64,000 nucleotides of DNA. Source: Escherichia phage EP_H11. Numbering within the stretch: position 1 is the first letter of the stretch; each line of letters opens with the position of its first letter. Positions 52,204 through 53,669 of the stretch are shown here, one piece after another. Location of the stretch: the sequence record OP688485, one strand, 5' to 3'. The notes under the pieces were generated by a model. The model saw only the letters and a list, made by a program, of their open reading frames with translations, had not been told where the DNA came from and did no database searches. The translations under genes were made by a program, and so were the position numbers.

Positions 52204-53013
52204 ATGTACTTTACTGATAATATGATCGTGGGACTGATGATTGCTTATATCATCGGTGGGATCATTGTTTATCCGATTGCTGCCTACGTAACTGGCAGAT
52301 TTCGCATTAAGCATGGCGGTTACACAGTATTGGCTACGGTATTTTGGCCGTTAATTCCTTTCGTGGTCGTGGCAGTTATCATAACTAAACTGGTTGAAAT
52401 AGCGTGCACGAAAGGGACTACCTCCGCGATCTCGGTGAGAAACATGCCAATTAATTTCAGCATGCAGAGTCTTGAAGACTTTGTACCGGAGCATGGTAAG
52501 AACGTAGTAGTCTTCTATCACGAACGATTCTATTCACGAGTAGAGATGCTCCAAATGCAGGTAGAATTCCACTACCAGATGATAGATGGAGATGGTTGCC
52601 CAGTTCCTCAGTGGGCATGCTATGATAATCGCGACGACATACCGTTCGATAAGCCATTCATCTGGAAAGATAAGCAGGTTAAGTTCCTTACTCTGGATGA
52701 CTGTATGGAAATACATAATCTTCATCCCAAGCATCATTACCGCTACTGGTGGGTTAAGGACTGGTTCCTAACTGGTGGAGGAAATAGCCAGTTAAATAGG
52801 GAACAGCTGGCGGAGATGTCGTTAGGGATTATGAGTGCCGAACAGTTTAGTGCTGAACTGGATAAAGGATGTGCTGATCTGGAAGCTAAACGTATCTTGC
52901 GTGAATTAACTCGTGAATCCAGCACTGGATACTGCGAGAAGCATGCTACTCGCCAGTTGGGTAAAGACCTATGCGATGTATGTCGTATTGAACGTGCATT
53001 TATGGAGGGATGA
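52204..53013 (+). CDS. membrane protein (269 aa)
   Basis: Two N-terminal hydrophobic helices; soluble C-terminal domain with a CxxxC..CxxC pattern. Confidence 0.6.
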   Translation: MYFTDNMIVGLMIAYIIGGIIVYPIAAYVTGRFRIKHGGYTVLATVFWPLIPFVVVAVIITKLVEIACTKGTTSAISVRNMPINFSMQSLEDFVPEHGKNVVVFYHERFYSRVEMLQMQVEFHYQMIDGDGCPVPQWACYDNRDDIPFDKPFIWKDKQVKFLTLDDCMEIHNLHPKHHYRYWWVKDWFLTGGGNSQLNREQLAEMSLGIMSAEQFSAELDKGCADLEAKRILRELTRESSTGYCEKHATRQLGKDLCDVCRIERAFMEG

Positions 53014-53669
53014 TGCGAATCTGGACCGAGGAGAACTCTATTCTGGAGTTTAGTGGAGAGTACCGATTCCTCTCTAACTTTTATCCTATTCCTATCGAGG
53101 ATAAGAATCCATATGGGAACGAGACTCTTCCTTCCCTTACTTACCCCAGTCTGGAGCATGCCTATCAAGCATCTAAGTCTCCATCACTAGCTCATCGTCT
53201 TATAATAGCTAGACTCCATACTCCTGGGGAGGCTAAGAGATACGGACGTAAGCTATCCATTACCGAATCGTGGAAGGAACAGCGAGTAGATGTAATGGAA
53301 CACCTACTCCGGATTAAATTCGCGAAAGGTGGGGAGCTAGCTCAAAAATTGATCGATACTTGGCCTAAGGAACTGGTCGAAGGAAATACCCACGGAGACT
53401 CTTTCTGGGGTATGACTCGTGAGGAATACAAGTCCGTCCTTACGGGTATTAACATGCTTGGACGACTATTGATGAAACTTCGGGAGGAGTTAATTATGGA
53501 ACAAATGACTAAGAAGACAGGATCGTTTGAGGAGTGGCATAAATTGCTGCACCAATACGCTCAGTCTCGTGGTGGTAGCGCTGCGGACGCCGAGGCTTGG
53601 CGGGATGATTACGATGAAGGTAAGACTCCTAAGCAGGCCTACGACGATGAGTGGGGCGAAGAAGACTAA
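53010..53669 (+). CDS. NADAR (YbiA/DUF1768) domain protein with C-terminal extension
   Basis: FSGEYRFLSNFYP, YPSLEHAYQASK, GEAKRYGR, WKEQRVDVMEHLLRIKF, ELVEGNTHGDSFWG are the canonical NADAR blocks. Confidence 0.8.
   Translation: MMRIWTEENSILEFSGEYRFLSNFYPIPIEDKNPYGNETLPSLTYPSLEHAYQASKSPSLAHRLIIARLHTPGEAKRYGRKLSITESWKEQRVDVMEHLLRIKFAKGGELAQKLIDTWPKELVEGNTHGDSFWGMTREEYKSVLTGINMLGRLLMKLREELIMEQMTKKTGSFEEWHKLLHQYAQSRGGSAADAEAWRDDYDEGKTPKQAYDDEWGEED

Follow-up and report, generated by a model that had tools for sequence, protein, structure and literature searches.

A predicted AdfN-type NADAR protein of Escherichia phage EP_H11 fused to a small acidic phage protein

Does Escherichia phage EP_H11 encode an enzyme that removes ADP-ribose from its nucleic acids, and what is the acidic tail that this protein carries? 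The question is raised by one gene in a stretch of 64,000 nucleotides of the phage sequence (record OP688485; hereafter the window, numbered from its first letter), for which a preliminary description had proposed a NADAR-domain protein with a 70-aa acidic C-terminal extension directed against DarTG-like toxins.

53010..53669, plus strand: complete open reading frame in the ORF list, 219 aa, encoding a NADAR domain fused to a C-terminal module

The reading frame opens with ATGATG, and counted from the first of these two codons (53010) the product has 219 aa, whereas from the second (53013), which public gene calls take as the start, it has 218 aa. A TAA stop codon closes the frame at 53667-53669. 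The TGA stop codon of the upstream gene (53011-53013) overlaps this ATGATG. The product is 100% identical to WBU87710.1, a hypothetical protein of Escherichia phage EP_H11. Taken as a whole, it is probably a catalytically competent NADAR of the AdfN type to which a formerly independent module of the phrog_519 family has been fused, a reading that we hold with moderate confidence.

The assignment of the larger part of the protein to the NADAR family was confirmed by profile searches, in which PF08719 matched aa 17-161 with an E-value of 7.4e-27 (95 bits for a cut-off of 35.1, profile positions 9-162 of 163), far beyond chance, and phrog_1017 matched with an E-value of 8e-39. The TIGR02464 model (riboflavin intermediates N-glycosidase) scored 73.6 bits for a curated NCBIfam cut-off of 73.7, a marginal result that falls 0.1 bit short, and the score against the DS32_2 NADAR anti-phage protein (NF053876) was 67 bits, below the curated threshold of 240. 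PADLOC reported a weak match to PDC-M42C (E 3e-5). Sequence matches in the PDB were YbiA 2b3w, the best one (E 5e-14), and PnNADAR 8bau. These two structures were also the only significant Foldseek matches in the PDB for an AF2 model of the protein (pLDDT 89.9, pTM 0.83), with E-values of 1e-8 for 2b3w and 4.5e-7 for 8bau and a probability of 1.00 for each; 2b3w was the best structural match, with a TM-score of 0.71 normalised to the target. The fold of the modelled protein is that of NADAR/YbiA.

53058..53492, plus strand: NADAR domain, aa 17-161 (Pfam PF08719, phrog_1017, PDB sequence matches, AF2/Foldseek)
53154..53177, plus strand: EHAYQASK with Glu49 and Lys56, the E-x6-K spacing being the same as in 8bau in the alignment
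53235..53285, plus strand: AKRYGRKLSITESWKEQR with Lys76, Arg80, Trp88 and Arg92 (alignment to 8bau)
53379..53408, plus strand: EGNTHGDSFW with Glu124, Asp130 and Trp133 (alignments to 8bau and 2b3w)

All the NADAR motifs that had been quoted for this protein are present in its translation, namely FLSNFYP (aa 20-26), SLEHAYQASK (aa 47-56), AKRYGR (aa 75-80), WKEQRVDVMEHLLRIKF (aa 88-104) and LVEGNTHGDSFWG (aa 122-134). Glu49 and Lys56 are the counterparts of E43/K50 in PnNADAR, E88/K95 in the E. coli C7 NADAR and E36/K43 in T4 AdfN (PMC11543638, PMC11825919), and Lys76, Arg80, Trp88 and Arg92 match K75, R79, W89 and R93 of PnNADAR, which contact the pyrophosphate and the adenine (PMC11543638). 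In the alignments to 8bau and 2b3w, Glu124 corresponds to E125 of PnNADAR and is the glutamate of the YbiA type; this site is occupied by His in T4-type phage NADARs and by Asp in DarT1-associated NADARs (PMC11543638). In the alignment, E49, K56, R80, W88, R92, E124, D130 and W133 match E43, K50, R79, W89, R93, E125, D130 and W133 of PnNADAR. As judged by these matches, the full set of catalytic and ADP-ribose-contacting residues is kept.

Three divergent phage NADARs (AdfN from T4, Bas32 and Bas60) were reported in 2025 to neutralise DarT1/DarTG1; they remove ADP-ribose, are specific for the guanine adduct and rescue phages from DarTG1 (PMC11825919). Guanine adducts (G-ADPr) were hydrolysed in vitro by all NADAR subfamilies tested (PMC11125620; PMC11833690; PMC12945103), G-ADPr on RNA is also reversed by NADARs (PMC11833690), and C-ADPr is reversed by YbiA-type and general NADARs (PMC12945103). 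In vitro activity is, however, no guarantee of counter-defence, since E. coli YbiA and the T4 NADAR hydrolysed G-ADPr in vitro yet gave uninfected cells no rescue from the toxicity of DarT1 (PMC11125620).

Reversal of guanine ADP-ribosylation by the EP_H11 protein, as suggested in the preliminary description, is in agreement with the tested AdfN homologues and with its 44% identity to the Bas32 NADAR, but the term "DarTG-like" used there was too broad. "DarTG1-like" is needed, because the activity is on the guanine adducts of DarT1 and not on the thymidine adducts of DarT2, which to our knowledge are not reversed by NADARs. We propose that the NADAR part (aa about 10-161) would be a catalytically competent ADP-ribosyl N-glycohydrolase that, during infection, most likely strips ADP-ribose off the guanines of phage DNA, and possibly of RNA. 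The adducts would originate from host DarT1-type ADP-ribosyltransferases, and their removal would restore replication in E. coli carrying DarTG1, so that the protein would serve in counter-defence as an orphan antitoxin, in the manner of AdfN. Homology to the tested phage NADARs makes this substrate and this counter-defence role the most likely ones. By its sequence, the NADAR half is a new member of a known counter-defence family and one more candidate among the AdfN-type counter-defences, extending the family to the EP_H11/IME392 phage group. Thymidine hypermodification is predicted in this group, and the guanine targets of DarT1 would stay unprotected by a modification of thymidine.

The closest comparison is with bas32_0066 of phage IrisVonRoten (Bas32), which we take to be AdfN-Bas32 and which aligns to aa 11-161 with an E-value of 1e-31. 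Both proteins have the catalytic Glu/Lys, the AKRxGRKL and EGNTxGDxxWG motifs, and Glu rather than His. A domain scan of the ten flanking ORFs (52204-58437) found no ADP-ribosyltransferase, so that the EP_H11 protein is an orphan NADAR of a coliphage, as is AdfN-Bas32 from the T5-like Bas32/Bas33 (Johannesman et al. 2025, PMC11825919). AdfN-Bas32 is a single-domain protein of 149 aa with an experimentally validated activity, whereas the EP_H11 protein has a predicted activity, based on homology, and an additional C-terminal module of 57 aa. AdfN-T4 (gp30.3), an anti-DarTG1 DNA guanine ADP-ribosylglycohydrolase, shares its fold and the E-x6-K catalytic pair with the EP_H11 protein. T4-type NADARs, however, have a His in place of the conserved glutamate and need another T-even factor for full activity; in the alignment this His, the hallmark of the T4-type "phage NADAR" subfamily, is absent from the EP_H11 protein, which has Glu124 instead.

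The YbiA-type glutamate is common to the EP_H11 protein and YbiA/TIGR02464, but YbiA is chromosomal, lies in a LexA-controlled operon (PMC11125620) and lacks the C-terminal module, whereas the EP_H11 protein is encoded by a phage gene and has it. The EP_H11 protein also differs from DarG1, which is encoded beside DarT1 and has the extended N-terminus that characterises DarT1-linked NADARs: no ADP-ribosyltransferase gene is adjacent, and the NADAR match begins at residue 17, with no N-terminal extension. DarG of DarTG2 combines a macrodomain hydrolase with a C-terminal DarT-binding domain, and its likeness to the EP_H11 protein is an architectural analogy only.

Other functions of the NADAR part have to be weighed with the genes that surround it.

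53677..53708, plus strand: terminator-like hairpin followed by a T-run (consensus scan; 9-bp stem with 5 G-C pairs)
55071..55400, plus strand: DUF4326 gene (Pfam PF14216, E 3e-17), about 1.4 kb downstream

The hairpin begins 8 nt past the stop codon of the NADAR gene, is identical in sequence in IME392, and may act as a terminator. The DUF4326 gene is conserved in IME392 and in the related sequence L063. Fusions of DUF4326 with NADAR, Macro and SLOG domains were reported to be frequent in viruses (PMC9503650), and it is possible that this neighbour is a partner of the NADAR gene in ADP-ribose metabolism. In such a case, as proposed by Iyer et al., the substrate would be soluble ADP-ribose-derived molecules, such as immune signalling molecules or toxic products of NAD+ breakdown, and the DUF4326 phosphatase-like protein would belong with the NADAR to a phage set for processing NAD+/ADPr. 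Among 55 further viral loci with a NADAR gene, two likewise had a DUF4326 gene close by. This proposal is, however, older than the experiments, and every phage NADAR tested since then acted on nucleic-acid guanine-ADPr; no activity on soluble signals is reported for any NADAR in the literature examined, and the DUF4326 gene does not adjoin the NADAR gene, since three ORFs lie between them and the terminator-like hairpin follows the NADAR gene. We consider a soluble substrate unlikely.

Alternatively, the protein could counter another ADP-ribosylating or NAD+-consuming defence, either by reversing guanine or cytidine adducts on RNA or by a non-enzymatic binding of ADP-ribose that blocks, for example, Retron-Eco1. 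The reported reversal of RNA G-ADPr and of C-ADPr by NADARs is consistent with such a role, Johannesman et al. expect further ADP-ribosylating defences as targets, and they note, from Carabias et al. (2024), a phage NADAR that works without enzymatic activity. In the literature examined, no anti-phage system is known to make C-ADPr or RNA G-ADPr, and the intact catalytic residues of the EP_H11 NADAR argue for an enzymatic role, so this alternative also appears improbable. The protein could also be a housekeeping N-glycosidase resembling YbiA, with small ribosylated metabolites as substrates, such as intermediates of the riboflavin pathway or by-products of the pyrimidine and hypermodified-thymidine metabolism of the phage. 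The near-threshold TIGR02464 score, Glu124, the predicted thymidine hypermodification and the dUTPase and dCTP-deaminase-like genes located 2.4-3.7 kb downstream could point to such a role. The score nevertheless lies just under the curated cut-off, E. coli YbiA itself cleaves G-ADPr and C-ADPr, the closest phage homologues of the EP_H11 NADAR occur in T5-like and many other phages without such a pathway, and the gene is tied to the nucleotide genes and to thymidine hypermodification by loose proximity alone. A housekeeping function is thus quite improbable, and an anti-DarT1 role of the AdfN type is the reading that we retain.

The one unusual feature of the EP_H11 NADAR protein is its fused acidic tail of 57 residues, which elsewhere is usually a small phage protein in its own right.

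53496..53666, plus strand: C-terminal module, aa 163-219, acidic, with three helices (phrog_519 family)

An acidic extra domain had been recognised in the preliminary description, but its length is 57 aa (M163-D219) rather than 70. Residues from about 150 to 165 belong to the last NADAR helix, as indicated by the alignment to YbiA (to aa 166), the end of the Pfam match (161) and the helix at 149-165 of the model. To that description can be added that the tail belongs to the phrog_519 family (E 7.6e-20, aa 157-219) and was formerly a standalone small phage gene, fused in frame. The module contains 15 D/E and 7 K/R, with a net charge of -8 and a pI of 4.5, and was modelled by AF2 on its own as three helices (pLDDT 84). 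The pTM of 0.83 obtained for the whole protein hints that the module may be packed against the NADAR domain. When the full-length protein was scanned with Pfam and NCBIfam, no match covered the tail; a PADLOC scan of the module alone gave nothing, and none of its structural or family matches was informative on function.

phrog_519 proteins are usually standalone, with about 58 aa, and are found in lambdoid and Stx prophages and in Ackermannviridae; the family was present in 196 phage records as well as in enterobacterial prophages, and an exhaustive profile search gave 83 module representatives, nearly all of 50-65 aa. Standalone members, such as Vi01_151c of Salmonella phage Vi01, the 58-aa "prophage protein" (P0001) of Enterobacter and E. 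coli prophages and those of Stx2a-converting phages, are 54-74% identical to the C-terminal 57 aa, and they have in common with the EP_H11 module the motif F-EWH-LL-YA-GGSAADAEAWRDDY-GKTP-A-DEWG, as seen in the alignment, and the same predicted three-helix unit. They differ in context, since the standalone proteins (52-68 aa) are encoded next to Ead/Ea22 genes, always directly after them for the prophage homologues, or downstream of a capsid gene, whereas the EP_H11 module is the C-terminus of an enzyme.

We also considered that NADAR and module might be general functional partners. This was not supported, as the module lies near a NADAR solely in the EP_H11 clade: an HMM scan of six-frame translations did not detect it within 4 kb at any of 55 further viral NADAR loci, and no NADAR was detected in the loci or records of the standalone modules (Ackermannviridae, prophages). 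It may thus be that the two fused parts do not belong to one pathway. The module is only rarely fused to anything else, for example to Mu GemA or to a DUF3331-like N-terminus, and these N-terminal partners share nothing, so they give no functional hint. As a working model, the module would be a self-contained acidic unit of three helices that binds proteins, its target being some factor conserved in enterobacteria, and it would either act apart from the enzyme or tether the enzyme to a partner. It is conceivable, although doubtful, that the module is itself a counter-defence or host-takeover factor, as an acidic DNA-mimic-like or toxin-binding unit of three helices, forming with the NADAR an antitoxin built like DarG as "hydrolase plus binder", or tethering the hydrolase to the place where it acts. 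If so, the standalone proteins of about 58 aa in Stx/lambdoid prophages and Ackermannviridae would be a new and widespread anti-defence family of enterobacterial phages. The tail is the more useful lead: through a fusion under strong purifying selection, a small and widespread phage protein is linked to an enzyme whose role in counter-defence is known.

Whether the fusion is genuine was examined by a comparison with the sister phage IME392, the only one in which the gene is split.

53475..53477, plus strand: codon 156, AAA (Lys), which is TAA in IME392 (DNA alignment; junction comparison, five sequences)
53482..53498, plus strand: Shine-Dalgarno-like GGGAGGAG (53482-53489), 6 nt, then the in-frame ATG of Met163 (53496-53498)

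When compared to near-identical relatives, a single A-to-T change in IME392 converts AAA to TAA and leaves an ORF of 155 aa for the NADAR (154 aa in the annotation, which starts at the second ATG), together with a separate ORF of 57 aa, opened by the same ATG as Met163. The long frame of EP_H11 could thus be an artefact, in which two genes were joined by a mutation private to this sequence, or by an error in sequencing, and IME392 has the true organisation; besides this stop codon and the Shine-Dalgarno-like sequence and ATG that follow it, another private lesion, a 4-nt deletion fusing two genes, is present in the EP_H11 window just upstream. However, the fused 218-aa form was found in seven independent sequences, namely EP_H11, five Logan/ENA assemblies from different samples and a divergent relative (P0149) that is 77% identical. 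The IME392 stop is a recent change, because IME392 hardly differs (pS 0.03-0.05) from L063, in which the gene is fused, and it truncates the NADAR domain, because the downstream KLREEL aligns with the last YbiA helix and with the Pfam model. A sequencing artefact was rejected on the basis of these seven sequences and the junction comparison, and the whole artefact reading is hardly credible. The fusion is the normal state of the EP_H11 phage clade.

The IME392 stop is paralleled in the RB69 allele of the T4-type AdfN, in which a premature stop removes the last helix and weakens the enzyme (PMC11825919). The fusion is nevertheless not essential, since IME392 is viable with the two halves apart. 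In the fused frame the tail is under strong purifying selection, with a pN of 0.069 and a pS of 0.665 between EP_H11 and the sequence L066; the module originated as an independent gene and is maintained by selection in the fused frame. The small gene would have been joined in frame to the last NADAR helix by loss of the NADAR stop codon, with its start codon and a Shine-Dalgarno-like sequence still in place. Met163 is presumed to be the original start of the small gene and may be an internal initiation site, although the resemblance to a Shine-Dalgarno sequence may be incidental, because the purine stretch encodes Arg-Glu-Glu of the last NADAR helix; this sequence is weaker in L066. EP_H11, with the fused gene, and IME392, in which one nucleotide splits it, form a natural pair on the question of whether the linkage matters.

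The ORF at 53010..53669 (+) encodes a protein of 219 aa, in which every motif quoted in the preliminary description is legible. Its start reads ATGATG and shares bases with the TGA that ends the preceding gene; public gene calls begin at the second ATG, giving 218 aa. WBU87710.1, from Escherichia phage EP_H11, matches the window protein at 100% identity, and among the DNA records of the phage collection Escherichia phage vB_EcoM_IME392 came closest (hereafter IME392; 93% identity across 2.2 kb).

Residues 17-161 matched Pfam PF08719 (E 7.4e-27, 95 bits, cut-off 35) and residues 7-170 matched PHROG phrog_1017, while the NCBIfam TIGR02464 score, 73.6 bits, lay just under its cut-off of 73.7. 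A PDB sequence search returned E. coli YbiA (2b3w) and an ADP-ribose-bound Phytophthora NADAR (8bau), and the same two entries were the only Foldseek matches of an AlphaFold2 model built from 86 sequences (mean pLDDT 89.9, pTM 0.83). Residue roles were taken from Schuller et al. 2023 (PMC11543638) and transferred through the alignment of the window protein with the PDB sequences. All nine counterparts are kept, as follows, in order.

PnNADAR: E43, K50, K75, R79, W89, R93, E125, D130, W133
Window protein: E49, K56, K76, R80, W88, R92, E124, D130, W133

Glu124 is the YbiA-type glutamate, a position held by histidine in T4-type phage NADARs and by aspartate in DarT1-linked NADARs (PMC11543638). 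The NADAR assignment proposed earlier is thus borne out by family matches, structures, fold model and residue set alike.

Residues 157-219 belong to a separate PHROG family, phrog_519 (E 7.6e-20). The Pfam end, the YbiA alignment and the model helix place the module boundary at Met163; since residues 150-165 form the last NADAR helix, the added unit comprises 57 aa. An extra acidic unit is therefore present, as had been described, but it is shorter than the 70 aa first attributed to it. The module is acidic (net charge -8, pI 4.5), and three helices were predicted when it was modelled alone (pLDDT 84).

Comparison with IME392 revealed how the two parts are joined. In the DNA alignment, the AAA codon of Lys156 (53475-53477) is TAA in IME392, whose NADAR ORF is thus 155 aa long (154 as annotated); farther on, GGGAGGAG and 6 nt precede the ATG of a separate 57-aa ORF (MEQMTKETGSF...WGEED). 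The fused 218-aa form is found in EP_H11, in five assemblies from other samples and in a divergent relative with 77% identity (P0149). At a pS of 0.03-0.05, IME392 is all but identical to L063, where the gene is fused, so that its TAA represents a recent single A-to-T change. Beyond this stop, the residues KLREEL can still be aligned to the Pfam model and to the terminal helix of YbiA, indicating that the stop truncates the NADAR domain; in a parallel case, a truncated terminal helix lowers the activity of the RB69 AdfN allele (PMC11825919). Between the window and the divergent relative L066, tail codons 156-218 gave a pS of 0.665 and a pN of only 0.069, so the fused frame is under strong purifying selection. 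In the EP_H11/IME392 clade the gene is thus normally fused, and selection maintains it in that form.

At the junction, the last NADAR helix runs straight into the start codon kept from the small gene, Met163, which may also act as an internal start; the Shine-Dalgarno-like purines 5' of it, weaker in L066, double as Arg-Glu-Glu codons. The module originated as a gene of its own and was joined to NADAR. This in-frame, selectively maintained NADAR-phrog_519 fusion is new, as is its natural split variant, and IME392 and its fused relatives offer a natural split/fused comparison. The split gene of IME392 lies at 5909-6568 of locus L001, and its 57-aa ORF is un-annotated and has its own Shine-Dalgarno-like sequence and ATG. 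Separately, the N-terminal half of the L066 NADAR gene is much more diverged than the remainder (pN 0.30 versus 0.05), suggesting mosaic recombination within this gene.

Standalone homologues of the module occur in Ackermannviridae (64-68 aa, downstream of the capsid gene) and in Enterobacter, E. coli and Proteus prophages (about 58 aa), where they directly follow an Ead/Ea22 gene in the four contexts examined; Stx2a-converting phages also hold homologues. In the Enterobacter and E. coli prophage loci L004-L007, the 58-aa gene (6001-6177) always lies 1 nt past the Ead/Ea22-family gene, near xis/int or in a nin-like early region, which suggests translational coupling. The module was found in 196 phage records, nearly all from enterobacterial hosts, and when 1.84 billion representative proteins were searched with a profile and no filter, only 83 matched, almost all of 50-65 aa. 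A few of these are C-terminal fusions to other proteins, and the module thus appears as a mobile C-terminal add-on. Three examples are listed with their handles.

P0226: C-terminus of Mu GemA (208 aa)
P0204: C-terminus of a DUF3331-like protein (151 aa)
P0203: C-terminus of an unknown 99-aa protein

A BFVD search with the module returned uncharacterised viral proteins only, no Pfam or NCBIfam model matched the tail when the full-length protein was scanned, and PADLOC found nothing with the module alone. No NADAR was detected in the Ackermannviridae and prophages carrying the module, and no copy of the module lay within 4 kb at any of 55 other viral NADAR loci; NADAR and module are thus associated in this clade only. 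We infer a protein-binding role for the module, as an autonomous acidic unit with a target conserved in enterobacteria; it would work by itself or else link the enzyme to a partner. The model's pTM hints that the module packs against the NADAR domain. An attractive but conjectural analogy is with DarG, which combines a hydrolase with a toxin-binding C-terminal domain.

A terminator-like hairpin (9-bp stem) with a T-run, identical in IME392, directly follows the NADAR-module stop (53677..53708). The following genes lie downstream.

54374..55087: Rv2179c-like 3'-5' exoribonuclease
55071..55400: DUF4326 gene, 1.4 kb downstream of the NADAR gene (Pfam E 3e-17)
55663..56043: RyR-domain protein
56040..56510: dUTPase
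56781..57404: dCTP-deaminase-like protein

No ADP-ribosyltransferase gene was found among the ten flanking ORFs (52204-58437), and the window NADAR is thus an orphan. According to Johannesman et al. 2025 (PMC11825919), T4 gp30.3 (AdfN) neutralises DarTG1 as a DNA ADP-ribosylglycohydrolase. In two unrelated phage NADARs, AdfN-Bas32 (T5-like) and AdfN-Bas60 (Vequintavirinae), the same study showed neutralisation of DarT1 and rescue of three different phages; none of the three enzymes acts against the thymidine-modifying DarTG2. The NADAR of phage IrisVonRoten (Bas32), bas32_0066, which we take to be AdfN-Bas32, is 44% identical to residues 11-161 of the window protein (E 1e-31) and has all motifs in common with it. 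In vitro, NADARs of each subfamily assayed cleave guanine-ADPr both on DNA and on RNA (PMC11125620, PMC11833690), and YbiA-type and general NADARs also hydrolyse cytidine-ADPr (PMC12945103). However, neither E. coli YbiA nor the T4 NADAR rescued uninfected cells from DarT1 toxicity (PMC11125620), so that in-vitro activity is no proof of counter-defence.

The main rival explanation is that the NADAR enzyme works on soluble ADPr derivatives. The DUF4326 neighbour supports it: fusions of this domain to NADAR, Macro and SLOG domains are reported to be common, and a role in processing ADPr-derived phosphates has been proposed for it (PMC9503650). Beside this stand the AdfN experiments on homologues, including that of Bas32, which lend support to the earlier proposal of counter-defence and have overtaken it in print; judged by homology, the NADAR half is an ordinary putative member of the AdfN-like phage counter-defence enzymes. 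EP_H11 and IME392 have been placed among YerA41/SP15/RP13-like phages predicted to hypermodify thymidine, a modification that would leave guanine open to DarT1.

The DUF4326 gene, which probably begins at the ATG of codon 3, is conserved in IME392 (L001 7973-8296) and L063 (3573-3896), where it is neither annotated nor called; it also lies within 4 kb in two of the 55 unrelated viral NADAR loci (L010 and L048). In L066, a Lar restriction-alleviation gene (PF14354; 2090-2320), absent from the window, is inserted downstream of the NADAR gene. Finally, the 269-aa ORF upstream of the NADAR gene (52204..53013) is a fusion specific to the window: relative to IME392, L063 and L066, a 4-nt deletion (TTCC) near 52416 joins an 84-aa membrane-protein gene to a 189-aa gene (MPINFSMQ start), and those relatives keep the two genes apart.
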